Below, piece after piece: positions 1 through 14,147 of a stretch of 14,291 bases of DNA (positions are counted from its first letter, which is position 1; each line of letters begins with the position of its first letter). This DNA is from Leidyana gryllorum EB-2025a (lineage: Eukaryota > Protista > Apicomplexa). The DNA is taken from positions 1-14,291 of the forward strand of contig JBLWGC010000157.1 of assembly GCA_048772705.1 (NCBI GenBank). Reading direction: 5' to 3'. The notes under the pieces were generated by a model. It was not told the origin of the DNA. It did no database searches and worked only from the letters and a program-made list of their open reading frames with translations. The position numbers and the translations under genes were made by a program.

Positions 1-7
1 TGATTTG

Positions 8-80
8 CACCGCCCGCGGGGCTCGAACCCGCGACTGCAAGATTAAGAGTCTTGCGCTCTACCGACTGAGCTAGGGCGGC
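8..80 (-). tRNA. tRNA-Lys(CTT)
   Basis: Minus strand GCCGCCCTAGCTCAGTCGGTAGAGCGCAAGA-CTCTTAA-TCTTGCAGTCGCGGGTTCGAGCCCCGCGGGCGGTG; complete 73-nt cloverleaf, no encoded CCA. Confidence 0.95.
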
Positions 81-387
81 AGGGAAGCAAGAACACAAAA
101 CCCGATAGCCTGACATGTGAAGTGACTTTGGTACTCACCGCATCGTTGGCGTGCCAGGCGGAAGTATAAGTTTCACACCATGTCGGAGGCGCGTGACCCC
201 CCCCCATCTTAGAGCCCAGCCTTTCCATTCTCTAGCTCTAACAGACAGGGAACGCTTGGAGTGGCGGGACAGAAACCGAGCTGATCAGTGGAGAGACCCG
301 TGTTGCAGGAGACCTCGGACCCTGTAGTCACAAGCCCAGAACTCTCGCACTGAGTTGCACTACTCCAGCGTCGGATATCATGAAGGA

Positions 388-430
388 AGCTGTTTGGGCT
401 GCAGGTATGATTCTTGCTCGCTTGGAAGAA
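388..430 (+). pseudogene. degenerate 5' fragment of tRNA-Pro
   Basis: AGCTGTTTGGGCTGCAGGTATGATTCTTG...TGGAAGAA aligns to the 5' part of the tRNA-Pro at 3831; T arm missing. Confidence 0.5.
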
Positions 431-441
431 CATTGCAACTG

Positions 442-514
442 GGTCCTGTAGCTCAGTCGGCAAAGCGTGTAGCTGTTCACCACAAAGTCGCAGTTTCGAA
501 GCGTAGCAGTATCG
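442..514 (+). pseudogene. degenerate tRNA, probably Asn(GTT)-derived
   Basis: GGTCCTGTAGCTCAGTCGGCAAAGCGTGTAG-CTGTTCA-CCACAAAGTCGCAGTTTCGAA; A-box and GTT anticodon retained, T and acceptor stems broken. Confidence 0.65.
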
Positions 515-591
515 GGAGCTGCGATATCCGACGCTCTCTTAGAGGTCGCAACTCTGTATTCAACTACCGGCAGGTGCCGCCCTACTGAGTT

Positions 592-664
592 TGGACGACC
601 TGGGTATCGATCCCAGTACCTCTCGCATGCAAAGCGAGCGCTCTACCATCTGAGCTAGCCGCCC
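592..664 (-). tRNA. tRNA-Ala(TGC)
   Basis: GGGCGGCTAGCTCAGATGGTAGAGCGCTCGC-TTTGCAT-GCGAGAGGTACTGGGATCGATACCCAGGTCGTCCA; G3:U70 pair and eukaryotic Ala-type ATCG T-loop. Confidence 0.95.
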
Positions 665-724
665 AGCCGCTCTACATGGAAAACCTATTGCATCCAGTGG
701 CTGACCGACTGCCGATACAACGCC

Positions 725-804
725 TGACAAGAGTGGGATTCGAACCCACGCCCTTTCGGACTGTGGCCTTAACACAGCGCCTTAGACCACTCGGCCTTCT
801 TGCC
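725..804 (-). tRNA. tRNA-Leu(AAG), U8-to-A variant
   Basis: GGCAAGAAGGCCGAGTGGTCTAAGGCGCTGTG-TTAAGGC-CACAG, long variable arm, GGTTCGAATCC; position 8 is A instead of the conserved T. Confidence 0.85.
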
Positions 805-929
805 GGAGTGTTGTTGGCTGGCCGCTCCACGCGTTTCCCGTCCCCGGAATCTCGAGAATGGAAAGACTCTCAGGTTGGAGGCGGGCAACGCAGGTCGGCG
901 TGCCGATTCAAATCCAGCACTTAAGTGTG

Positions 930-1001
930 CTCCGAGACCGGGAATCGAACCCGGGTCTTCCGCGTGACAGGCGGAAATACTAACCACTATACTATCTCGG
1001 A
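930..1001 (-). tRNA. tRNA-Asp(GTC)
   Basis: TCCGAGATAGTATAGTGGTTAGTATTTCCGC-CTGTCAC-GCGGAAGACCCGGGTTCGATTCCCGGTCTCGGAG; perfect stems. Confidence 0.96.
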
Positions 1002-1095
1002 CGCTCTGAACACGCCTGCCTCCGACCCCAAAAGTCCTTCCATTTTGAGATTTCAAGCACAGAAAACGCGTGGAGCGGCAAGCCAACAACATCCC

Positions 1096-1178
1096 GGCAA
1101 GATGGCCGAGTGCTCGAAGGCCCTGTGTGCAGGTCGCAGTCCGAACGGGCCCCGTGGGTTCGAATCCCAGTCTTGTCA
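1096..1178 (+). pseudogene. degenerate tRNA-Leu(CAG)
   Basis: Paralog of 725-804 with D-loop GG lost, U33 changed to G and a variable-arm insertion; anticodon reads CAG. Confidence 0.75.
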
Positions 1179-1238
1179 GCCATGGTATCGGCACTCCGTC
1201 AGCCACTGGATGAATTAGGTCTTCCATGTTGTACGCAT

Positions 1239-1313
1239 GGGCGGCTAGATCAGATGGTGGAGCGCTCGCTGTGCATGCGAGAGAGGTACTGGGATCGACA
1301 GCCAGGTCGTCCA
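1239..1313 (+). pseudogene. degenerate tRNA-Ala(TGC)
   Basis: Paralog of 592-664 with D-stem, U33 and T-stem lesions and an AG insertion. Confidence 0.8.
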
Positions 1314-1402
1314 AACTCCATGCAACTTTGGCTGCAGAGAAACGGCTGGCGCGTGGTCCAAAAATGTGAATGTTGTTATTTCAATCTAGTCGAAGAGCCG
1401 CG

Positions 1403-1475
1403 GCCTACGTGGCGCAATGGATAGCGCGTTGGACTTCTAATCCAAAGGTTGCGAGTTCGAGTCTCGCCGTAGGTA
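1403..1475 (+). tRNA. tRNA-Arg(TCT)
   Basis: GCCTACGTGGCGCAATGGATAGCGCGTTGGA-CTTCTAA-TCCAAAGGTTGCGAGTTCGAGTCTCGCCGTAGGTA; intact. Confidence 0.95.
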
Positions 1476-1539
1476 GCCAAATGCTCAGCACTTTACTTCG
1501 ATGATTTGGCTGACTAGCTGCCTTCGCTGAGACATGTTG

Positions 1540-1611
1540 TCCACTGTAGTCTGAGTGGCTAGGATATGCGGCTCTCACCCGCAAGCTCCGGGCTCAAGTC
1601 CGGCAGTGGAA
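1540..1611 (+). pseudogene. tRNA-Glu(CTC), degenerate
   Basis: Paralog of 4195-4267; anticodon loop CTCTCAC, T54 changed to C, 1-nt deletion in the T stem. Confidence 0.75.
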
Positions 1612-1699
1612 GTCAGTGGTTGAAGCCAGTGAAATACTTGAGCAAAGTGCCCAGCAATCTCCGTCAATAGTGTCTGATTCGTGATCTTCGGCTTGCATT

Positions 1700-1771
1700 G
1701 CCTTCTTAGCTTAGGGGCAGAGCATGTGCTTAGTAAGCGAAAGGTCGGCGGTTCGATTCCGGCAGAAGGCT
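1700..1771 (+). pseudogene. tRNA-Thr(AGT), degenerate
   Basis: GCCTTCTTAGCTTAGGGGCAGAGCA-TGTGC-TTAGTAA-GCGAA; anticodon-stem and T-stem mismatches relative to 2962-3032. Confidence 0.75.
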
Positions 1772-1832
1772 TGACTGCATCGACTGGGCACCTGCAAAGC
1801 TTAAGTCTCTCAAGCTCCACTCATCTTAGCCG

Positions 1833-1904
1833 AGCCTCTTAGCTCAGCCACCAGAGGGTAAGTCTCTTAGCCACAAAGTCGCAGACTGGAACCTGCCAGT
1901 ACCT
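1833..1904 (+). pseudogene. highly degenerate tRNA relic (same family as 442-514)
   Basis: TAGCTCAG...CCACAAAGTCGCAG...AACCTGCCAGTACC shared with 442-514 and 4459-4530. Confidence 0.5.
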
Positions 1905-1969
1905 GAGGCACCCACTAGCTCAACGCAGACTGCCGCCGAGTCTCGTTGTGCTGAGGCTCTCTCTCGAGT

Positions 1970-2040
1970 GCACTTGTGGTCCAAGGGTAGGATGCGAGCT
2001 TCCCATGCTCACAGCCCGGGTTCGAGTCCCGGCAGGTGCA
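1970..2040 (+). tRNA. tRNA-Gly(CCC)
   Basis: GCACTTGTGGTCCAAGGGTAGGATGCGAGC-TTCCCAT-GCTCACAGCCCGGGTTCGAGTCCCGGCAGGTGCA; 71 nt, one anticodon-stem mismatch. Confidence 0.88.
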
Positions 2041-2115
2041 GCCGATCGTACAGGCTTGACCATGGCTGCAACAATGTTTTCAACCGGGGCGAAGAGCAAT
2101 GCACTTTAGACTGCT

Positions 2116-2187
2116 TGTCCGAGCCAGGAATCGAGCCTGGGTTTGCACGGCCACAACGTGCTGTCCTAACCACTAGACGACTCGGAC
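2116..2187 (-). tRNA. tRNA-His(GTG), T54-to-C variant
   Basis: GTCCGAGTCGTCTAGTGGTTAGGACAGCACG-TTGTGGC-CGTGCAAACCCAGGCTCGATTCCTGGCTCGGACA. Confidence 0.88.
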
Positions 2188-2463
2188 AAATCTTTGAGCG
2201 AGGCTGTAGAGGTAGCGAAGCATCTATCAGGATGGGATGGAACAGGAGCGTCAGACGAACTGCGTTGCAAGAAGTCCACTCCTCAACTTCGGGTGGGACG
2301 GAATTTACTCGTGGAATATCTGATGCCACCACCACAGTTAGATACGTTACCATCTAAGCACCCCGGGCCGTGAGAGTACTTCGGGGCGGCACACCGCAGC
2401 CAGAACGACATCGGTGGTCGCAACGGAAGCCATTAACACTTTGGAACTCAGAAGGAAAGTAAT

Positions 2464-2547
2464 GCACAGATGCCCGAGTGGTCTAAGGGGCCAGACTCAA
2501 GTTCTGGTAGGCGCAAGTCTGCATGGGTTCGAATCCCATTCTGTGCA
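2464..2547 (+). tRNA. tRNA-Leu(CAA)
   Basis: GCACAGATGCCCGAGTGGTCTAAGGGGCCAGA-CTCAAGT-TCTGG, long variable arm, GGTTCGAATCC, TCTGTGCA. Confidence 0.95.
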
Positions 2548-2635
2548 ACGGCGATCATCCCAAAAAAAAGCTGGAAAAGGTCACAGTAGATTCGAATCTC
2601 CATTTGTATATTCGGTTGCATGCACCCAAGTATTC

Positions 2636-2705
2636 GGCTGTTGCTCTGCTGGTATAATCCTTCCTCAGAGTGGAAGGAGTCCTGGGTTCGATTCCAGAAC
2701 AGCCC
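2636..2705 (+). pseudogene. degenerate tRNA-Pro
   Basis: GGCTGTT...GGTTCGATTCC...AACAGCCC matches the Pro gene at 3831; D arm and anticodon mutated. Confidence 0.7.
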
Positions 2706-2841
2706 TCTTGGTCGTCGGTTGACCCGACGGGACAAGTTGCCCTCACAACCAACACAGCCACCTCGTTAGCCCACTTCGGCACTCAAGGCCATTAACATCT
2801 CAAGAATCGCATTTCGGCTCCCTCTTCCATGTTGCAGACTG

Positions 2842-2912
2842 AGCAGTGTAGCTCAGTGAAAAGTGTTGGGCTCATAATCCAAAGGTTCGTCGATCGAAAC
2901 GACGCACTGCTA
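2842..2912 (+). tRNA. initiator tRNA-Met(CAT), slightly degenerate
   Basis: A1:U72 pair, GGG-CTCATAA, initiator-type GATCGAAAC T-loop; D-loop GG lost. Confidence 0.75.
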
Positions 2913-2961
2913 AGTTTGCGCAGAAGGGGAACAGTTATAGAATAGATTGCCTCGCGAGCAA

Positions 2962-3032
2962 AGCCTTCTGCCGGAATCGAACCGGCGACCTTTCGCTTAC
3001 TAAGCGAATGCTCTGCCCCAAGCTAAGAAGGC
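2962..3032 (-). tRNA. tRNA-Thr(AGT)
   Basis: GCCTTCTTAGCTTGGGGCAGAGCATTCGC-TTAGTAA-GCGAAAGGTCGCCGGTTCGATTCCGGCAGAAGGCT; A14 missing. Confidence 0.82.
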
Positions 3033-3160
3033 AATGTTAACTGGACATCACGAATGAGTCCCTATTGACGGAAGCTACTGAAGCACATTGTTCCACCACT
3101 CAATACTTCCACTGCTCCACATACCGGCAAATAGGGTGTAACTAAGTTTAGAGCTTCCTT

Positions 3161-3233
3161 GCCGCCCTAGCTCAGTCGGTAGAGCGCAAGACTTTTAATC
3201 TTGCAGTCGCGGGTTCGAGCCCCGCGGGCGGTG
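3161..3233 (+). tRNA. tRNA-Lys(TTT)
   Basis: Identical to 8-80 except at the wobble base (loop CTTTTAA). Confidence 0.95.
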
Positions 3234-3293
3234 CAAATCAATGTCTCTGGGAGTAGGAATGGAACCGTTGCCTACAAGCACACTCTGCTGGAT

Positions 3294-3366
3294 TTCCACT
3301 GCCGGGACTTGAACCCGGATCGTGCGGGTGAAAGCCGCATATCCTAGCCACTTAGACTACAGTGGA
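3294..3366 (-). tRNA. tRNA-Glu(TTC)
   Basis: TCCACTGTAGTCTAAGTGGCTAGGATATGCGG-CTTTCAC-CCGCACGATCCGGGTTCAAGTCCCGGCAGTGGAA; intact. Confidence 0.95.
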
Positions 3367-3478
3367 CAAGTTCCCCAGGTGAGGTCAACAAGACGTGGTC
3401 CGTCGGGTCAACCTACAACAAAGGGGTTGCAGTAGAAAGTGGAGGGTCCCTCTACTAAGCTCTGCAACATTGTAAGGC

Positions 3479-3551
3479 GTCTTGTGAGCTCAGTCGGCAG
3501 AGCGTGTGGCTTTTGATGACAAGCTCGCAGGTCCGGAACCTAGCAAAACCG
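3479..3551 (+). pseudogene. degenerate tRNA relic (Asn-like family)
   Basis: AGCTCAGTCGGCAGAGCGTGTGGCT...TCGCAGGTCCGGAACCTAGCA resembles 442-514; stems broken. Confidence 0.55.
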
Positions 3552-3669
3552 GCTTCAGAGGCACCCTAGACATTGACTGCGGTGCTCTCCCAATGGCACT
3601 TGTGGTTCGCGACCCTTCAAAGATGACAACGATGGGTTTGAATCCGGCCACGTGCAGCCGTACGTACTT

Positions 3670-3742
3670 TGGACGACCTGGGCATCGATCCCAGTACCTC
3701 TCGCATGCTAAGCGAGCGCTCTACCATTTGAGCTAGTCGCCC
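3670..3742 (-). tRNA. tRNA-Ala(AGC)
   Basis: GGGCGACTAGCTCAAATGGTAGAGCGCTCGC-TTAGCAT-GCGAGAGGTACTGGGATCGATGCCCAGGTCGTCCA. Confidence 0.95.
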
Positions 3743-3830
3743 GTTATGCGGACCCCATCGCATTTGTTGGTTCTCAACATAGGATGACCACTTTTTAAAC
3801 TGTCTTCAGCGGGTTACACGAATGACAGGC

Positions 3831-3902
3831 GGCTGTTTGGTCTAGTGGTATGATTCTTCCGTCGGGTGGAAGAAGTCCTGGGTTCCATTCCCAAAACAGC
3901 CC
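3831..3902 (+). tRNA. tRNA-Pro(CGG), variant
   Basis: GGCTGTTTGGTCTAGTGGTATGATTCTTCC-GTCGGGT-GGAAGAAGTCCTGGGTTCCATTCCCAAAACAGCCC; non-canonical bases at positions 32 and 57. Confidence 0.8.
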
Positions 3903-3978
3903 GCTCTGTTGTATCTTGACCCAACCTGCCCGGCAGCATGGTTCTGGGTTCGGGTGATTCCTCGGAGAAAGTCGGAGG

Positions 3979-4051
3979 GGGAGTGTAGCGCAGTCGGTAG
4001 CGCGTAGGTCTCATAATCCTGAAGTCGAGAGTTCGATCCTCTCCACTCCCA
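3979..4051 (+). tRNA. elongator tRNA-Met(CAT)
   Basis: GGGAGTGTAGCGCAGTCGGTAGCGCGTAGGT-CTCATAA-TCCTGAAGTCGAGAGTTCGATCCTCTCCACTCCCA. Confidence 0.93.
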
Positions 4052-4091
4052 CGGTCGGAATCGAAACCGCGACAAACTCATCATGCTACCA

Positions 4092-4133
4092 TTTTGCAGT
4101 CGGGAATCGCACACAGGTTATCTCGATGGCAGC
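4092..4133 (-). pseudogene. 3' half of a degenerate tRNA-Gly(GCC)
   Basis: Matches the 3' half of the fuller relic at 14077-14147; the 5' half is replaced by other sequence here. Confidence 0.5.
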
Positions 4134-4194
4134 CGACATACCATGTTTTCCAAGACGGTACGGCTCTCGGCCGAAGCCCCAACTCAACCACTCG

Positions 4195-4267
4195 TCCACT
4201 GTAGTCTAAGTGGCTAGGATATGCGGCTTTCACCCGCACGATCCGGGTTCAAGTCCCGGGAGTGGAA
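4195..4267 (+). tRNA. tRNA-Glu(TTC)
   Basis: Same as 3294-3366 except for one acceptor-stem mismatch. Confidence 0.9.
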
Positions 4268-4343
4268 GTCATTGAACTACTCTAGCAAAGTGCTCCACTA
4301 ATCTCCGTCAATAGCGATTGTTTCGTCATCTCCGGCTTCCATT

Positions 4344-4415
4344 GCCTTCTTAGTTTAGGGGCGGAGCGTTCGCTTCGTAAGCGAGAAGTCGCCGGTTCGA
4401 TTCCGGCTGAAGGCT
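4344..4415 (+). tRNA. tRNA-Thr(CGT), variant
   Basis: GCCTTCTTAGTTTAGGGGCGGAGCGTTCGC-TTCGTAA-GCGAGAAGTCGCCGGTTCGATTCCGGCTGAAGGCT; a few stem changes. Confidence 0.8.
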
Positions 4416-4458
4416 CGACTGCATCGACTGGGCACCGGCAAGCTGCTCGCAAACTCCA

Positions 4459-4530
4459 ATAATCGTAGCTCAGCCATCAGAGGTAAGTCTCTCAGCCACG
4501 AAGTCGCAGGTTTAGAACCTGCCAGTACCT
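4459..4530 (+). pseudogene. highly degenerate tRNA relic
   Basis: Paralog of 1833-1904. Confidence 0.5.
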
Positions 4531-4545
4531 GAGGCACCCACAGGG

Positions 4546-4617
4546 GGCTGTTTGGTCTAGTTATATAATTCTTTCTTCGGCTGGAAGAAGTCCTGGGTTC
4601 AATGCCACGTCTCTCCA
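4546..4617 (+). pseudogene. degenerate tRNA-Pro(CGG)
   Basis: GGCTGTTTGGTCTAG...TTCGG...GGAAGAAGTCCTGGGTTCAAT; 3' acceptor strand lost. Confidence 0.7.
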
Positions 4618-4718
4618 AGGTCGGCTACTATACGCGACTCCCACTCGTACAATCCCGAATGAAGTCCAGACCAGCTGAGACAAAATCTGAGTTGCACCAG
4701 TTGTGAGGGCTGGAACTG

Positions 4719-4790
4719 CTCCGAGACCGGGAATCGAACCCGGGTCTTCCGCGTGACAGGCGGAAATACTGACCACTATACTATCTCGGA
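4719..4790 (-). tRNA. tRNA-Asp(GTC)
   Basis: One D-loop difference from 930-1001; the upstream flank is also homologous. Confidence 0.96.
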
Positions 4791-4911
4791 CGCTAGTAAA
4801 CACGCCGGCCTCCAACCCCAGAACTCCTCGCATTTTGAAATTGGAGAAGTTTTTTAATTGGCCACCCGATAGTGAACTTTGGGTGGTCAGCATAACACAC
4901 TATATATATTA

Positions 4912-5031
4912 GCTGTCTACCATACTACATCGAAAGAGCAGGATCCCATCCGAACTCCGCCGCGAAGCGATGTAAGGCCAGGTCAGTACTGGGCTGGGGG
5001 ACCGCCCGGGAACACCAAGGAGTTGACAGCA
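4912..5031 (+). rRNA. 5S rRNA
   Basis: About 120 nt; GCTGTC/GACAGC terminal helix, CCATAC, GATCCCATCCGAACTCCG, AGTACT-GG..GGGGACC..CCGGGAA motifs; followed by TTTT. Confidence 0.93.
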
Positions 5032-5035
5032 TTTT
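5032..5035 (+). terminator. Pol III oligo-dT terminator of 5S
   Basis: TTTT directly after the 5S 3' end. Confidence 0.6.
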
Positions 5036-5311
5036 GTTCAAGATTAAATTGGCACCCGATAGTTAATGAGATGTATGATGAGACCCACCAATATAACAGT
5101 AGAGTGACACACAGTGTTGTCATACACAGTCACTGATATACTTTCACATTCACATTGAGTTGGGTGGTTAGTGGGTTAAGAGTAAATACCATGGGGATAA
5201 CTGAAAGTGAGGGGGAGGGTTGGTTGACGACGACCAGTTGGGGAAAGAAAAAATAAGGCGCTGTCCGCGCAAAGTCAAGTTTTGGCACCCGATAGTGATT
5301 AATATAAGATA

Positions 5312-5675
5312 CATTGAACATCACAGTAAGCCTCAGCAGATCGTAAGACAAAGCTTACTCTCATGCTTACAGCACCTGGATGCGTCCCAATCGTCTTTTG
5401 GGGATGCAAAGCTCCCGATCAATATTAATGTTTATCCACTTAAAGCTTTCGTCGCCGACTGTGGAATGACCTCAATCGACCAATTATACAGTGATGCCTC
5501 GATCAAGAGTACTAGGCGTTGATGTTCAGCTAGGATTCTGACTTAGAGGCGTTCAGTCATTATCCTACAAGCGTAGCTTTGCAGCACTGGCCTTTCGACC
5601 AACTGCGTTACCAGAGGCTTGAGCCAACGGTTCCTCTCGTACTAAGTTGGCTTACTGTCACAATGCCGCCTAATA

Positions 5676-5729
<54 letters not shown>

Positions 5730-5771
5730 ATTAGCGGGTGAACAATCCGACATTTTGAGACTTCTGCGTCT

Positions 5772-5809
<38 letters not shown>

Positions 5810-5832
5810 AACGTCGCTATGAACGCTTGGCT

Positions 5833-5867
<35 letters not shown>

Positions 5868-6230
5868 TCACCTCTAGCCAGAACCTTTCTGGACTTAAAG
5901 GATCGATAGGCCATGCTTTCGCAGTTCGTATTCGCACTGGAAATCAGAATCAAGCTGACTTTTCCCCTTTCAGTCTACGAGAGATTTCTGTTCTCTCTGA
6001 GTCAACCTTAGGGCATCTGCGTTGCAGTTTAGCAGATGTGCCGCCCCAGCCAAACTCCCCATCTGAATATGTCCTCTGATACGATCGGTAAGAGAACCTT
6101 AAATCTGGAACACGTAAGAAAACGTGATTCGTTGTGACAGAGTAAGTAGAGCGACAGTGGAGGTCGTGGTATTTCACTGTCGCCAAAGCTCCCACGTATG
6201 CTACACCCCCCAAGTCACTCCACAAAGTCA

Positions 6231-6268
<38 letters not shown>

Positions 6269-6275
6269 TATTTTG

Positions 6276-6310
<35 letters not shown>

Positions 6311-6365
6311 GGCGGATGGGGACAGTAGGAATCTCGTTGATCCATTCATGCGCGTCACTAATTAA

Positions 6366-6427
<62 letters not shown>

Positions 6428-6444
6428 GGCGAATTTCATCGCAA

Positions 6445-6477
<33 letters not shown>

Positions 6478-7647
6478 CGTAAAAAGCGTTGCCGCTTGTC
6501 GCAATGCTTTGTTTTAATTAAACAGTCAGATTCCTCTTGTCCGTACCAGTTCTGAGTTAGCCGGTTAATGCCAACAGGATAGCCGAAGCTCCTAGCGTAG
6601 GCCACCGCTCGTTGCAACTCCCAGAGCGAGTCACCCCACTCCAGAAAAAGCGAGAACGATGAACTGTCACTAGGCCCTGAAAGCTCGGCCCTCAGAGCCA
6701 ATCCTTTTTCCAAAGGTACAGATCTAATTTGCCGACTTCCCTCATCCGCCTTATTCTATCGACCAGAGGCTGCGAACCTAGGAGACCTGATGCGGTTTAG
6801 GGTACGGCTAGAAAGTGGAGTAAATATCCCTTGGGGTTTCAAAGGCCAATAGAAGCGCACCGGATTTCCAACAGGTGTAAGAAACTATGCCAACTTTTCA
6901 TCCTTTTCTCCAGACAAGCCGATTCAAAGGAGTGGTGTTGTCAAAGAGCAAAGATAACGCTCCCCAGGGCTTCTCCTGGCAACCCAAGTTCAGTTGTGTT
7001 ACCACAACCCCACCAACTAGTAAAGGAATTTGGGCCTTTTTCCCTTTCAGGTCAAGAGGCGAAGCCTCACTCTGAAGGAGTAAGCTTTTCCTTTAGGGCC
7101 GACTAACCCGAGGACAATTGCTGTTCTCCCGGAACCCTTATCCACTTCGGTCATCAAAGTTCTCATTTGATTAATTGCTACTACCACCAAGATCTGCACT
7201 AGAGGCTGCTCCAGCTAGTTTCACAACTAAGCCTTCTCAGCAACCCCCACGCCCTCCTACACGTCAATGCTTATTTCATTGACGGTCTGGTATCGGCCGC
7301 CCGCTTGAGCGCTATCCATTTTCAGGGCTGGTCCATTCGGCAGGTGAGTTATTACACACTCCTTAGCGGATTTCAACTTCCATGACCACCGCCCTGCTGT
7401 TTCAATGAACCAACACCTTTTATGGTGTCTGATCAGCGAGTGTTGAGCGCCTTAACCAAACGTTAGGAGCATCCCTCATCGCCAGTTCTGCTTACCAAAA
7501 CTGGCCCACTAAGAAGTATCATTCATCTACCGAGCTAACTGAATTAGCAAGGTAGCAAACCCATTTAAAGTTTGAGAATAGGTCGAGGGCGGGATGCCCC
7601 CGAGGCCTCTAATCATTCGCTTTACCGGATCTAACTGATCATTAACT

Positions 7648-7701
<54 letters not shown>

Positions 7702-8168
7702 AGTCTTTCGCCCCTATGCCCAAGTTTGACGAACGATTTGCACGTCAGTATCGCTACGAGCTTCCACCAGGGTTTCCCCTGGCTTCACCCAACTCAGGTA
7801 TAGGTCACCATCTTTCGGGTCTAAACGAAAATGCTCAGGCTCGAACTTCAAGAGTCGGCTGCTGTTGCATTGTAATTCACAGCTTTTGCTTTCACTACGC
7901 GTCTGGGTTTGACACCCTTACACTCGCACTTTCGTTTAACTCCTTGGTCCGTGTTTCAAGACGGGTCGTCTGTACATGCCACTCTCGACAACTTACAATG
8001 GCGTACCACACTTCTCGATGTTAAGAGCTTTGTCATAACCGAAGCGATAACAAGTCGTAACATACGGAAGTGATGTCGAGTAATGTAATGAGAGAAATCT
8101 CTCAAACATTGGGTCACGGACAGCCGCTTCCCCCTCAGCGATTTCAGGTATTTTAACTCTCCTTTCGA

Positions 8169-8201
<33 letters not shown>

Positions 8202-8538
8202 TGCTATCGATCTCTCACCGTTATCTAGCCGTGGATGGAGGTTACCACCCATTTTGCGCTCTACTCCCAAAGAGCGTGACTCATTAGATTACAGCTGTAC
8301 TTGAGAATGGCTGGAATAAGAACAGGGCTGTCACCTTCTCTGGCGTGCCTTTCCAGGCATCTTCTTCCCAGTTTCTCAATAGCTGCAACCTCGATGCACA
8401 ACTCCGTCAGAAACGGATTAACATCGCGGGCTTTTCCCACTTCGTTCGCCACTACTACGGGAATCCCAGTTGGTTTCTTTTCCTCCGCTTAATTATATGC
8501 TTAAATTCAGCGGGTAGCCTTGCTTGAGCTCGGATCAT
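5312..8538 (-). rRNA. 28S (LSU) rRNA, apparently full length; ends approximate
   Basis: 5' ACCCGCTGAATTTAAGCATAT; universal LSU motifs including GGGATAACTGGCTTGTGGCAGCCAAGCGTTCATAGCGACG, GTGAGCTGGGTTTAGACCGTCGTGAGACAGG and the sarcin-ricin loop AGTACGAGAGGAAC; 3' ACGATCTGCTGAG. Confidence 0.97.
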
Positions 8539-8668
8539 GATTTGAGAAGCCTACTGTAATTACCTCAACATTTCACTGTATGAGTTCTTACAGGTAGCAT
8601 CATTTAGCCAGTGACGGAAAGACACTGTATGTCATCCATTCAATCGAAATTGATTGGAGAAATCTATA
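8539..8668 (-). other. ITS2 (~130 nt)
   Basis: Spacer between 5.8S and 28S. Confidence 0.8.
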
Positions 8669-8823
8669 CGATACCGAGCCAAACATACTTCAGGCCGAGG
8701 CCAGAAGTACCTTTGCGTTCAGAGATCTGGTGAATCACGAAATTTCGCAAGTCATACTGCTTATCGCGGTTTGCTGCGTCCTTCCTCGGTGTGAGAGTCG
8801 AGTCATCCATCGCTGAGAGTTTT
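8669..8823 (-). rRNA. 5.8S rRNA
   Basis: AACTCTCAGCGATGGATGACTCG...GAAGGACGCAGCAAACCGCGATAAG...TGAACGCA; position between SSU and LSU. Confidence 0.92.
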
Positions 8824-8892
8824 TAATTCTCATTAATAATGATTTAGTCATGTTAATTCATTTAGTGCTTAGGTTGGTTGTTGTTTAACAGG
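8824..8892 (-). other. ITS1 (~70 nt, AT-rich)
   Basis: Spacer between the 18S end (GGATCATT) and 5.8S. Confidence 0.8.
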
Positions 8893-9044
8893 AATGATCC
8901 ATCCGCAGGTTCACCTACGGATACCGTGTTACGACTTCTTCATCCTCTAGATGATAAGGCTCACAACATTTCCTCACGAAGAGCGATGTAGAACAAAGCA
9001 GCTACGTAAGTCCATGTAATTTGCCGGATCATCCAATCGGTTGA

Positions 9045-9079
<35 letters not shown>

Positions 9080-9431
9080 ATCAGCACAAGGTGATGACTT
9101 GTCCTTACTAGGAATTCCTCGTTCATGACCCATAATTGCAAAGGTCAATCCCTATCACGACGGAGTTTCACAAGATTTCCCCCTTCGGACGAAGTAGGGT
9201 AGAGCTCGCTGACTCCGTCATTGTAGCGCACGTGCAGCCCAGGCCATCTAAGGGCATCACAGACCTGTTATAGGCTCGAACTTCCTTGTGATAGTCTCAC
9301 AAAGTCCCTCTAAGAAGCCAATCGCTTACAGAAGTAAACGAAGGCTAGTTAGTAGGTCGAGGTCTCGTCCGTTATCGGAATTAACCAGACAAGTCACCTC
9401 ACCGACTAAGAACGGCCATGCACCACCACCC
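8893..9431 (-). rRNA. 18S rRNA, 3' ~540 nt only; truncated by the element
   Basis: Runs from GGGTGGTGGTGCATGGCCGTTCTTAG through GTACACACCGCCCGTC to GTAGGTGAACCTGCGGATGGATCATT; homology stops abruptly at 9431. Confidence 0.96.
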
Positions 9432-9746
9432 TAGTGATACTTGCGGAACGGTTCAAAAGGTGGGTTACGGACGAGTTATTTCCGCGAGTACGTTTTTTGA
9501 GTATCGCAAAAGGGCGGTTACGTCCGGGCCGAAAGTATCTGTCCTTATGCGACAGTAGGCCGTAAAGGGGGGATATGTTGTGTTACATGTAAAGATTATG
9601 TGCTGTGAGCTCGTCTCAATGGTCGATCTGCTCCGGTAGACGGCTGATTAACGCGTGTTGTGCTATATCTTCATGCGCTATGGTACTATGGTAAGTTATT
9701 GGTTAATGTGGTATGGAAAAAGTAAGTTACCAGTCTGTCTATCTGA
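9432..9746 (+). repeat. left terminal inverted repeat (315 bp)
   Basis: Reverse complement of 11955-12270; by eye they differ by one substitution and one homopolymer indel (T6 vs A7). Confidence 0.97.
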
Positions 9747-9853
9747 CTGTCAATGGTCAAGCACGTTAACCAGCACGAAACCAGAACGAAACCAGACTGT
9801 CTCCTCTAATACTAATCGACGACCATCAACCTTCAACCTTGCGTATAGAAACA

Positions 9854-11962
9854 ATGTCCATGACGAATTCTACCCAAGTTAACACTACTGTACCCACCAG
9901 CCTCAATACTACCACTGTACCCACCTCGCTCAGTACCACCCGCCGCCTCACCCAAGCCACCCTGTCGGTGAACGCCAAAGCGCGTCGTTCCGACTCATCG
10001 ATGAGCCAAAGTTGCTCTTCCGACTCCGCCCTCGGCGCCCCTGCAACCCCGACCGCTTCTGTCACAGCCCCCCACCACCAGCTCCTCTGCGCCCTTCCCA
10101 CCGCGAGCTTCCGGCCACAAAGACGGATGCAGGGAGTCTTTGCTGACTGGTTCGCTAAGCAGCCCATCGACCTGTCACTCATTCCAGTGCCACAACTGAT
10201 GAGTGCGGTCGATGACTTCTACAGGCGGCTGTACGATTCCCTACCCGTTGACCCCGCTCGCCCCCCATACTACAGTCTGCAGAGCTGGCTGCAGTTCCAA
10301 GGTTCTCTTCCTCCCGCCCCAAGCGCCCCCCACTACGACCCGGACTGGCTCGCTTTTCTGGCTGCTGCATCGAACCACTTTGAATGTTCGGTGGCCAATC
10401 TCACCGATCGAGATGCAGCGGCCGGATTATGCATGACCGGTCCGTACGAGCCTGTCCCTCCTCCTCCTTGTCTCCGCTGCCGTGGCCCGACCGCTCCTTC
10501 TTCTCGTCCCAGCACCGCCAACACCGCCGCTCGCCCAGGGAAGCTGCTGGCCCACCTTCAGCGGGCAATGGGCGGGCACAACCTATTTGCTGTGTTGGCT
10601 GCGTTTAGTCAGGGACCGCGTCGGGCGTCACTGGTCCAATGGGGGAAGATCTCTGCGCCGTCTGACACATTCGTTGGCATTCGGCCAGACTACCGCGCCC
10701 CCCTGGAGACCGCCCTTTACCTGTCCATCCTCTACCGTCTCGAAGCGATTCGGACTCTGGACTTCTCAAGCACAACCCTCCCACCCTGCAGCCCACTGGA
10801 GTTTACTTATTGCGAAGACGGCGGCATTGCCCCCGAGGTTTTCGCTAGTGTAGTCGAGTCTGATGAAGAACACTGGAAGCAGATTCTGGTGTGCTTGAAG
10901 ACTACGGGGTACACGGGAATAGCGAAGATCAATGCCGCCGTCAGCTCGATACTCCGGAGGCTGCACGATGAGCCTCAGATCGTTGGGCTTTTCAAAGGGT
11001 TCGGGGGAGGGAAGGCTGATGCCCAGGGAGTTAGAGTTCGAGTAGCTCCTCTTCAAACCCGCCCCTTCGTGAAGGTGGAAGAAGTTCGTCAGCCCGCGAA
11101 GCTACTGGCCCGGTTGTGCCGTACAGTGAAGGACTCCGCCCTCGTCGCGGCCTGTCTGCTGCTGTACCTCACCGGTTTGCGTGGCGAGGAACTTCGACCG
11201 ATCACATGGGCCGCGTTTGCTGAGGGGGGGGTAACTATTTCTTTGAGTAAGACCGGCGGAACCAGGACCGTTCAGCTACCTGCGGGTAGCGAAACGCTCT
11301 TCCGGCGACTCCTACTCGGCTCTGCTAAGGTTCAACCCGACCCTTCTCACCGCATGCTTCCTGACCAATTTGGCTACAAGCGGCGGGCTCCCCCTTCCCA
11401 ATCGACCCAGAGTCCCACAGTTCTTTTTGCCAGCTCGAAGAAGCGTGCAAGGCTGCTGCTGACGGACCTCTTTGGCGACAAAGGCGACCGTAAGATCTCG
11501 ATGGGACTCCATTGTTGGAGACGAACCTTCATCAGATCGGTGACTGCCTGTGTCGCCAAAGCGTCCACACTGGTGGCTCACAAGCGCCTTGCAACCACGC
11601 AACGCTTCTACGCCGGCAGCGCTGGCCATCTCGAGGCAGCTGAAGAGTTGTGGACCAACTTGGTTGAAGCATGGCGGTCGATGGGGCTGACCAAGGGAGA
11701 AGGCGGGCTGAGCCATAGAGCCTTGGCGGACCTGGATTGCTCCGAGCCGCCAGCAACCTGGGTGAAGTTTAGAGAGGATTGTGGAGGGGGATTGGACACA
11801 GCGGGAGGAGATTCGGACTCCGACGAGGATGACGAAGACGACCGCGACTCAGACCTCGCATCCGACTCCGAGTCGGAATCTCCCATCGTTACACCACCAC
11901 GCTCGAGGAAGAGATGTTTGGGGGCAGAGCCGACAGAAGACAAAAGGCGGAGGATCAGATAG
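9854..11962 (+). CDS. tyrosine recombinase (phage-integrase fold), ~702 aa from the first ATG
   Basis: Box I LYLTGLRGEEL (R codon 11180), SKTGGTRTV (K 11249), GLHCWRRTF (HxxR 11510-11521), LVAHKRLATTQRFY (H 11579, Y 11609). ORF is open from 9839; first ATG at 9854 in ACAATG context. Acidic tail followed by basic RSRKR and KRRRIR. Confidence 0.92.
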   Translation: MSMTNSTQVNTTVPTSLNTTTVPTSLSTTRRLTQATLSVNAKARRSDSSMSQSCSSDSALGAPATPTASVTAPHHQLLCALPTASFRPQRRMQGVFADWFAKQPIDLSLIPVPQLMSAVDDFYRRLYDSLPVDPARPPYYSLQSWLQFQGSLPPAPSAPHYDPDWLAFLAAASNHFECSVANLTDRDAAAGLCMTGPYEPVPPPPCLRCRGPTAPSSRPSTANTAARPGKLLAHLQRAMGGHNLFAVLAAFSQGPRRASLVQWGKISAPSDTFVGIRPDYRAPLETALYLSILYRLEAIRTLDFSSTTLPPCSPLEFTYCEDGGIAPEVFASVVESDEEHWKQILVCLKTTGYTGIAKINAAVSSILRRLHDEPQIVGLFKGFGGGKADAQGVRVRVAPLQTRPFVKVEEVRQPAKLLARLCRTVKDSALVAACLLLYLTGLRGEELRPITWAAFAEGGVTISLSKTGGTRTVQLPAGSETLFRRLLLGSAKVQPDPSHRMLPDQFGYKRRAPPSQSTQSPTVLFASSKKRARLLLTDLFGDKGDRKISMGLHCWRRTFIRSVTACVAKASTLVAHKRLATTQRFYAGSAGHLEAAEELWTNLVEAWRSMGLTKGEGGLSHRALADLDCSEPPATWVKFREDCGGGLDTAGGDSDSDEDDEDDRDSDLASDSESESPIVTPPRSRKRCLGAEPTEDKRRRIR

Positions 11963-12270
11963 ACAGACTGGTAACTTACTTTTTCCATACCACATTAACG
12001 AATAACTTACCATAGTACCATAGCGCATGAAGATATAGCACAACACGCGTTAATCAGCCGTCTACCGGAGCAGATCGACCATTGAGACGAGCTCACAGCA
12101 CATAATCTTTACATGTAACACAACATATCCCCCCTTTACGGCCTACTGTCGCATAAGGACAGATACTTTCGGCCCGGACGTAACCGCCCTTTTGCGATAC
12201 TCAAAAAAACGTACTCGCGGAAATAACTCGTCCGTAACCCACCTTTTGAACCGTTCCGCAAGTATCACTA
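11955..12270 (-). repeat. right terminal inverted repeat (316 bp)
   Basis: Reverse complement of 9432-9746; contains the ORF stop codon TAG (11960-11962). Confidence 0.97.
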
Positions 12271-12447
12271 TACTTACCGGGACGGAATTTACTCGTGGAA
12301 TATCTGATGCCACCACTACAGTCAGATACGTTACCATCTAAGCACCCCGGCCCGTGAGAGTACTTCGGGGCGGCACACCGCAGTTAGAACGACATCGGCG
12401 GTCGCAACGGAAGCCATTAACACTTTGGAACTCTGAAGGAAAGTAAT

Positions 12448-12531
12448 GCACAGATGCCCGAGTGGTCTAAGGGGCCAGACTCAAGTTCTGGTAGGCGCAA
12501 GTCTGCATGGGTTCGAATCCCATTCTGTGCA
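12448..12531 (+). tRNA. tRNA-Leu(CAA)
   Basis: Identical to 2464-2547. Confidence 0.95.
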
Positions 12532-12618
12532 ACGGCGATTATCCCAAAAAAAGCTGGAAAAGGCCACAGTAGATTCGAATCTGCATTTGTATATCTGGTT
12601 GCATGCACCCAAGTATTC

Positions 12619-12687
12619 GGCTGTTGCTCTGCTGGTATAATCCTTCCTCAGAGTGGAAGGAGTCCTGGGTTCGATTCCAGAACACCC
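12619..12687 (+). pseudogene. degenerate tRNA-Pro
   Basis: Copy of 2636-2705. Confidence 0.7.
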
Positions 12688-12828
12688 TATTGGTCGTCGT
12701 TTGACTTGACCGGACATGTTGCCCTCAGAACCAACACAGCCACCTCGTTAGCCCGCTTCGGTAGGGCAGTCAGGGCAACTAACATCTCGAGGATCACATT
12801 TCGGCTACCTCTTCCATGTTGCAGACTG

Positions 12829-12900
12829 AGCAGTGTAGCTCAGTGGAAGAGTGTTAGGCTTATAACGCAAAGGTCCGTCGATCGAAACGACGCACTGCTA
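12829..12900 (+). pseudogene. initiator tRNA-Met-derived gene with anticodon mutated to TAT
   Basis: A1:U72 and GATCGAAAC retained; anticodon arm TTAGG-CTTATAA-CGCAA is mispaired. Confidence 0.75.
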
Positions 12901-12948
12901 AGTGTGCGCAGAAGGGAACAGTTGCAGGATAGATTGGCTCGTGAGCCA

Positions 12949-13019
12949 AGCCTTCTGCCCGAATCGAACCGGCGACCTTTCACTTACTAAGCGAATGCTC
13001 TGCCCCAAGCTAAGAAGGC
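12949..13019 (-). pseudogene. tRNA-Thr(AGT), degenerate
   Basis: Copy of 2962-3032 with extra anticodon-stem and T-stem mismatches. Confidence 0.72.
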
Positions 13020-13147
13020 AATGTTAAGTGGACATCACGAATGAGTCCCTATTGACGGAAGTTACTGAAGCACATTGTTCCACCACTCAATACTTCCACG
13101 GATCCACCCACCGGCAAATAGGGTGTAACTAAGTTTAGAGCTTCCTT

Positions 13148-13220
13148 GCCGCCCTAGCTCAGTCGGTAGAGCGCAAGACTTTTAATCTTGCAGTCGCGGG
13201 TTCGAGCCCCGCGGGCGGTG
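13148..13220 (+). tRNA. tRNA-Lys(TTT)
   Basis: Identical to 3161-3233. Confidence 0.95.
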
Positions 13221-13277
13221 CAAATCAATGTCTCTGGGAGTAGTGGAACCGTTGCCTACAAGCACACTCTGCTGGAT

Positions 13278-13350
13278 TTCCACTGCCGGGACATGAACCC
13301 GGATCGTGCGGGTGAGAGTCGCATATCCTAGCCACTTAGACTACAGTGGA
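13278..13350 (-). tRNA. tRNA-Glu(CTC), variant or possible pseudogene
   Basis: Positional copy of Glu(TTC) 3294-3366 with anticodon CTC, an A31:C39 mismatch and A58 changed to T. Confidence 0.72.
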
Positions 13351-13462
13351 CAACTTCCCCAGTTGAGGTCAACAAGACGTGGTCCGTCGGGTCAACCTAC
13401 AACAAAGGGGTTGCAGTAGAAAGTGGAGGGTCCCTCTACTAAGCTCTGCAACATTGTAAGGC

Positions 13463-13535
13463 GTCTTGTGAGCTCAGTCGGCAGAGCGTGTGGCTTTTGA
13501 TGACAAGCTCGCAGGTCCGAAACCTAGCAAAACCG
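13463..13535 (+). pseudogene. degenerate tRNA relic
   Basis: Copy of 3479-3551. Confidence 0.55.
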
Positions 13536-13653
13536 GCTTCAAAGGCACCCTAGACATTGACTGCGGTGCTCTCCCAATGGCACTTGTGGTTCGCGACCCT
13601 TCAAAGATGACAACGATGGGTTTGAATCCGGCCACCTGCAGCCGTACGTACTT

Positions 13654-13726
13654 TGGACGACCTGGGCATCGATCCCAGTACCTCTCGCATGCTAAGCGAG
13701 CGCTCTACCATTTGAGCTAGTCGCCC
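13654..13726 (-). tRNA. tRNA-Ala(AGC)
   Basis: Identical to 3670-3742. Confidence 0.95.
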
Positions 13727-13814
13727 GTTCTGCGGACCCCATCGCATTTGTTGGTTCTCAACATAGGATGACCACTTTTTAAACTGTCTTCAGCGGGTTA
13801 CACGAATGACAGGC

Positions 13815-13886
13815 GGCTGTTTGGTCTAGTGGTATGATTCTTCCGTCGGGTGGAAGAAGTCCTGGGTTCCATTCCCAAAACAGCCC
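13815..13886 (+). tRNA. tRNA-Pro(CGG), variant
   Basis: Identical to 3831-3902. Confidence 0.8.
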
Positions 13887-13962
13887 GCTTTGTTGTATCT
13901 TGACCCGACCTGCCTGGCAGCATGGTTCTGGGTTCGGGTGATTCCTCGGAGAAACTCGGAGG

Positions 13963-14035
13963 GGGAGTGTAGCGCAGTCGGTAGCGCGTAGGTCTCATAA
14001 TCCTGAAGTCGAGAGTTCGATCCTCTCCACTCCCA
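13963..14035 (+). tRNA. elongator tRNA-Met(CAT)
   Basis: Identical to 3979-4051. Confidence 0.93.
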
Positions 14036-14076
14036 CGGTCGGAATCGAAACCGCCGACAAACTCATCATGCTATCA

Positions 14077-14147
14077 TTTTTCAGTCGGGAATCGCACACA
14101 GGTTATCTCGATGGCAGCGAGCGACTCTTCCACTAGACCACAGATGC
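14077..14147 (-). pseudogene. degenerate tRNA-Gly(GCC)
   Basis: GCATCTGTGGTCTAGTGGAAGAGTCGCTCG-CTGCCAT-CGAGATAACCTGTGTGCGATTCCCGA; Gly-type 5' half and GCC anticodon, T arm and acceptor decayed. Confidence 0.65.

Follow-up and report, generated by a model that had tools for sequence, protein, structure and literature searches.

In a window of 14,291 nucleotides (the whole stretch of DNA that was analysed) we identified a 2839-bp element in which a single tyrosine recombinase ORF lies between near-identical terminal inverted repeats (TIRs), and which is a new variant among the eukaryotic tyrosine-recombinase elements, being neither a Crypton, a DIRS element nor a Starship. One side of the element is joined to a truncated 18S rRNA gene and the other to a tRNA cluster, with both breaks at one-edit copies of ACCCGATAG, a motif that is repeated in host rDNA spacers. 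Judged from sequence, the breaks look site-selected, and the element likely uses the motif as a landing site. That it is a DNA transposon landing on ACCCGATAGTGA copies, with the 18S/tRNA-cluster join arising from loss or exchange between two such sites, is a reading to which we give about an even chance; the element and its probable target motif are a sturdier result than the rearrangement. The features of the window are as follows.

1..4842, no strand assigned: tRNA cluster A, with 21 ARAGORN calls (cluster 1-4790 by Rfam and ARAGORN), internally rearranged
2287..2295, minus strand: CACCCGAAG, a motif copy with one edit, at the site in cluster A that corresponds to the right break
4843..4862, no strand assigned: third, element-free join, of cluster A to the 5S spacer
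4864..5295, plus strand: exact host motif copies ACCCGATAG at 4864, 5054 and 5287, around the 5S gene and past the LSU gene (a fourth is at 100)
4912..8821, strands as given: rest of one rDNA unit, undecayed, with 5S at 4912-5031 (plus), LSU at 5309-8537 (minus) and 5.8S at 8669-8821 (minus)
8892..9431, minus strand: 3' 30% of the 18S rRNA gene, from Rfam and comparison with relatives
9421..9431, plus strand: left junction, with CACCC as the retained half of an 18S site one edit away from the motif, whose native context is CACCC-ATAG
9432..12270, plus strand: the element (TIR, single tyrosine recombinase ORF, TIR), 2839 bp
9432..9746, plus strand: left TIR, 315 bp, whose first seven bases, TAGTGAT, repeat the 3' half of the motif
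9854..11962, plus strand: tyrosine recombinase ORF, 702 residues from the first ATG, with an acidic tract and a basic tail at the C-terminus
11955..12270, minus strand: right TIR, 316 bp, containing the stop codon of the recombinase ORF
12271..12278, plus strand: eight non-target bases, TACTTACC, which match neither side and, together with the 7 bases that follow, make up an imperfect outer arm
12279..14118, plus strand: tRNA cluster B, a 95.8% paralog of 2295-4133 on the same strand, with tRNAs from 12447

The element and its recombinase

Aligned to each other, the two TIRs show a single substitution and, within a T run, a 1-nt indel. The recombinase ORF is the sole long ORF of the element, the recombinase being its only enzyme as in Cryptons, and ORF and domain searches of the 2.84 kb found no reverse transcriptase, RNase H, DDE transposase or cargo gene. 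An internal complementary region is absent, there being inside the element no match of more than 10 nt to its ends. A 16-nt direct repeat inside the TIR (window 9454-9469 and 9507-9522, 14/16 positions alike) is a possible arm-type binding site. A pattern made from the TIR had no matches in metagenome and viral contigs, and no second copy of the element was found there.

Searched against PHROG profiles, the recombinase matched two integrase families (PHROG_1, E-value 1.2e-10, and PHROG_216, E-value 3.5e-7), and against Pfam it matched Phage_integrase (PF00589) with an E-value of 6.9e-5 and 23.1 bits, which is under the curated cut-off of 27.1. An NCBIfam profile search gave no match, and the Crypton-associated and Starship recombinase domains of Pfam had no match in the element. 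All six positions of a candidate catalytic set were present, namely TGLR(443), SK(466)TG, H553xxR556, H576 and Y586, and from the motifs of the family we presume that R443, K466, H553, R556, H576 and Y586 have the corresponding catalytic roles. With both the profile match and the R-K-HxxR-H/W-Y set found, the predicted protein is classed as a member of the tyrosine recombinase superfamily. Two structure models were of low confidence (pLDDT 38.5 and 34.9), and a Foldseek search with a low-confidence model placed HP1 integrase at the top with an E-value of 0.99, no row reaching 0.001.

Only one relative, P0001 (29% identity), was found among the 1.84 billion protein representatives scanned; it is a distant homolog on a single 2574-nt contig, and keeps box I and the HxxR motif. 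Word-indexed searches found no further homologs, an exact look-up was negative, and no relatives were found in genome, plasmid or phage collections.

Relation to known elements

The closest layout is that of Tec3, an element with long TIRs and no DDE transposase; the element here shares its combination of long TIRs and a recombinase without a DDE transposase, but is smaller and has an intact ORF. The likeness is one of layout, and the Tec3 sequence was not among the matches of any recombinase homolog search. Tec3 is not known to target a motif in RNA-gene clusters, and nothing seen in the window points to developmental excision of the present element.

The literature was covered in excerpts, in which Tec3 of Euplotes crassus is, like our element, eukaryotic and encodes a tyrosine recombinase (PMC3212892); it is present in 20-30 copies (PMC3464196), and the excerpts of PMC3464196 and PMC4157794 hold little further on it. 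Cryptons are likewise recombinase-only DNA elements of a few kb, for which a circle intermediate has been proposed (PMC3212892, Kojima and Jurka 2011), but they are described without TIRs and with 4-6-bp direct repeats (PMC3212892, PMC13465315), whereas our element has 315-bp TIRs and no direct repeat. DIRS1-type retroelements combine inverted terminal repeats with a tyrosine recombinase (PMC6681497, PMC13465315), as the element does; we rejected derivation from a DIRS element, as there is no RT/RNase H ORF and no internal complementary region. Starships are also tyrosine recombinase elements (PMC11162782), for which at least 5 distinct targets are reported; of 222 insertion sites, 23% fall in 5S rDNA (PMC11162782). 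They are, however, fungal, tens to hundreds of kb long, cargo-bearing and flanked by direct repeats, in contrast to a 2.84-kb element without cargo, whose probable target is a spacer motif rather than the 5S gene body. The excerpt of PMC12130899 contained no TIR-bearing recombinase element, and among the matches listed in literature searches, covered by title and opening of the abstract, there was no recombinase-only TIR element targeting an rDNA spacer motif.

Eukaryotic DNA elements with tyrosine recombinases are few, and the recombinase of this one has a single distant relative in so large a protein set. An element end that repeats half of a host regulatory motif would provide a concrete, testable rule for how a small, intact eukaryotic recombinase picks its target, and the element may explain the mixing of rDNA pieces into tRNA clusters in the host lineage. 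An excerpted survey of 64 apicomplexan genomes reported no Class II elements, with Cryptons sought by BLASTn only, and its authors allow that divergent Class II elements may have been missed (PMC9141347). Features of the rRNA may point to a gregarine apicomplexan as host. If the host does belong to this phylum, the element, as a DNA transposon, would run counter to the reported lack of such elements there (PMC9141347).

The left junction and the native rDNA layout

At 9431/9432 the left junction reads CACCACCACCC followed directly by TAGTGATAC, which confirms the sequence-only reading that the 18S gene stops there. For comparison we fetched 63 metagenome loci with a 26-base 18S pattern adjoining the break; some of these loci are the same contig, and their rDNA identity to the window is about 71-96%. 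In these relatives the rDNA unit is a compact tandem, 5S-LSU-5.8S-18S, with periods of 5548 (L003), 6558 (L041) and 6187 nt (L056). The closest full unit, L044, has rDNA 96% identical to the window, an 18S gene at 286-2062, and the next 5S gene about 400 nt away from where 18S starts. The break maps after base 825 of L044. Of the roughly 1777 nt of 18S the window thus retains 540 and lacks about 1237 nt (70%) together with the ETS, in agreement with the earlier estimate that the 5' two-thirds of the gene and the ETS were absent. The 63 loci, some of which share a contig, gave 67 matching 18S contexts; every one runs on as normal 18S, 64 of them as CACCC-ATAG. Neither the element nor the recombinase was found in any of the 63.

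We observed no target-site duplication at the element junctions and no 4-6-bp terminal direct repeats; since the element flanks are non-contiguous, one direct repeat could have been lost. The absence of a visible duplication had been noted from the sequence, with TA as a possible exception; we did not adopt a TA duplication, because it would need the native A that follows CCC to have gone.

Of the 63 relative loci, 29 were scanned with ARAGORN, and 28 of these gave no tRNA; among all 63 only L030 resembles the tRNA cluster of the window. Because the relatives' rDNA is a tRNA-free tandem, the tRNA cluster is not the natural neighbour of 18S, and the window therefore contains a third join, near 4850, which lacks the element. 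A tandem tRNA-rDNA super-unit was rejected for the relatives on the same layout. An rDNA pseudogene was also rejected, the window rDNA being without decay: it has 5 private changes in 3040 invariant columns, and 11 relatives range from 0 to 84. The host rDNA is eukaryotic, with very short ITS and the 5S gene inside the unit, and a literature search listed no report of a layout of this kind; a further one for the lineage, by rRNA motifs, matched no paper.

The right flank and the tRNA clusters

On the right, the match to the tRNA array from position 2295 onward that had been recognized by eye holds, and begins at 12279 after eight intervening bases (12271-12278) that the sequence-only reading did not mention. 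Clusters A and B differ by 37 transitions, 27 transversions and 13 gap columns. The right flank may also resemble a U1 snRNA 5' end, a Reb1 site and telomere repeats.

The outer arm at the right join faces an arm of the TIR across the terminal 6 bp. For a 14-bp arm, a length picked after looking, one of 3000 random flanks scored equally for this arm-6bp-arm geometry, and shorter arms were weak, 188/3000 (8 bp) and 161/3000 (10 bp) random flanks being as good; no outer arm was found at the left join. An arm, a spacer and an inverted arm is the layout described for recombinase sites in the excerpt of PMC3212892. Bases 12271-12278 may be part of a recombinase site, a carried coupling sequence of the Tn916 type, or divergence of cluster B. 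Integrases of the Tn916/CTnDOT type recombine without homology between coupling sequences and can leave non-target bases (PMC5812530, in excerpt); they belong to bacterial conjugative elements, and any likeness to the present element would be functional only.

Some further features of the clusters were seen. Within cluster A there is an element-free inverted duplication (587-886 versus 1014-1318, 83%) and a direct duplication (1539-1915 versus 4194-4541, 81%), both copies of the latter ending just past a motif-like GGCACCCAC. A degenerate tRNA-Gly-like gene, similar to L030 237-293, continues in cluster B (14086-14147) and is cut at 4133 in cluster A (4100-4133), so that the A/B homology break sits in cluster A. 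Compared with cluster A, two anticodons are changed in cluster B, Met(CAT) to ATA (window 12829-12900) and Glu(TTC) to CTC (13278-13350).

A host spacer motif at both breaks

The rDNA spacers of the relatives carry a repeated host motif, ACCCGATAG(TGA). A count of k-mers over the window, L044 and L031 spacers, with the junctions left out, gave ACCCGATAG (12 copies) and ACCCGATAGTGA (10 copies) as the top repeated words; we had first noticed the motif itself while looking at the junctions. Exact copies of the 9-mer occur in 9 of the 63 relative loci. Further loci have its core roughly 50-65 nt upstream of the 5S gene, and more distant loci lack it. From this distribution the motif is a host element, probably a protein-binding site.

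At the left join CACCC is followed by TAGTGAT, the first seven bases of the element being the 3' half of the motif; in cluster A the sequence at 2295 on the minus strand is CACCCGA-AG. Cluster A (4850 nt) and the native rRNA coding DNA (5491 nt) each contain two one-edit copies of ACCCGATAG, and in each of the two regions one copy is the site of a break; a random break falls inside a one-edit footprint with frequencies of 0.0018 and 0.0022. Allowing for a look-elsewhere effect, two randomly placed breaks would have some 9-mer repeated in the spacers in common with a probability of 5.6e-5 for 9-mers of three or more copies (10 9-mers) and 2.5e-4 for those of two or more (44 9-mers). The 7-nt match of the element end to the motif, with a chance of about 8.5e-4, is independent of these values. 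The junction evidence comprises two junctions of one element copy, and under only two of six motif definitions do both breaks lie within the motif footprint, the other four missing one break. The two breaks also differ in register, that in the cluster being at the footprint edge and the right one blurred by the eight bases. The preference for RNA-gene clusters that had been proposed earlier gains support here, in the form of a sequence motif at both breaks.

Origin of the 18S-tRNA join

In the explanation we consider to stand at about even odds, the recombinase would excise and integrate the element while tolerating mismatched overlap bases, and such tolerance would account for the base lost at the left join and the eight non-target bases at the right. 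One copy would have entered a motif-like site in 18S and another a motif-like site in a tRNA cluster, oriented opposite to the motif. The two copies would then have recombined, or the recombinase would have acted again at one end, with the 5' part of 18S, the ETS and whatever lay beyond being removed or exchanged; a local deletion would be the simplest form of this step. The near-identical TIRs and the undecayed rDNA fit a recent event, and undecayed rDNA is equally expected from a collapsed repeat. The sequence-only reading had the element joining two unrelated loci by deletion, inversion or translocation. The flanks are indeed non-contiguous, but need not be unrelated or distant: the rDNA remnant borders tRNA cluster A and cluster B is a paralog in the same orientation, which makes a local deletion as good a fit as a translocation. 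The window holds no sign of an inversion.

A possible but clearly less probable explanation is an assembly chimera, in which two site-selected insertions, one in 18S and one in a tRNA cluster, were collapsed, so that the junctions are real and the join is not. The window spans three repeat classes (tRNA clusters, rDNA and the element) and both of its ends lie in repeated tRNA genes, the relatives' rDNA is tandem and multicopy, and the rDNA of the window lacks decay, all of which speaks for such a chimera. Against it, cluster B differs by 4% from cluster A over its whole length and is for that reason a distinct locus rather than a collapsed copy; that the assembly crossed 4.6 kb of rDNA and 2.8 kb of element would suggest long-range support; and in L030, which may itself be chimeric, a retroelement and an internal 18S fragment likewise neighbour a tRNA cluster. 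No sequencing run held more than 13% of the words of the stretch, which is about the share of 18S, and 20 of the 24 runs listed held 9-13%, shares too small to bear on habitat. A chimeric join would undo only the claim of a rearrangement and leave the two junctions and the target rule untouched.

Two further explanations take opposite views of the motif. Integration might be concerted at two sites, each end joining the upstream half of a separate motif copy (one copy per end, because the element has two identical ends and the motif lacks palindromic symmetry), with every insertion deleting, inverting or translocating host DNA. Both flanks are upstream halves of motif-like sites that point into the element, the element end provides the 3' half of the motif, and inverted motif pairs 7 and 10 nt apart are present in the L024 spacer. 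Two independent insertions would, however, yield the same arrangement one time in four, and the registers of the ends differ; we think this mechanism very unlikely. We know of no precedent for concerted two-site integration, and none appeared among the matches listed in the literature searches. A broader form of the idea, that the two identical ends, each joining the upstream half of a Pol III/rDNA spacer motif, make the element a built-in rearranger by which rDNA units are cut and tRNA and rRNA clusters remixed, also seems to us rather unlikely. Alternatively, the motif match is due to chance and the join is a repair at the element end with eight filler bases in an already shuffled region. 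Cluster A does contain duplications and inversions without the element, the join near 4850 likewise lacks it, and four of the six motif definitions miss one break, but a look-elsewhere probability of at most 2.5e-4 and the independent 7-nt end match leave chance repair with little to recommend it.

Other observations in relatives

In L030 (1-7069, 18S about 77% identical) the tRNA cluster (227-1078) lies beside the internal 18S fragment (about 1167-1656); an RT/RNase H/integrase ORF of the gypsy type is found at 3265-5103 on the minus strand. Bases 1-52 of this locus recur inverted near 1660-1712, and it has motif-like sites at 496 and 768. In L024 the rDNA spacer that separates 5S from the LSU end contains a U6 snRNA gene (4454-4563) and 11 motif copies, among them the two inverted pairs. 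Spacer insertions of 2-4 kb without long ORFs were seen in L016 (7312-10320), L034 (4659-8656) and L006 (2430-4565).
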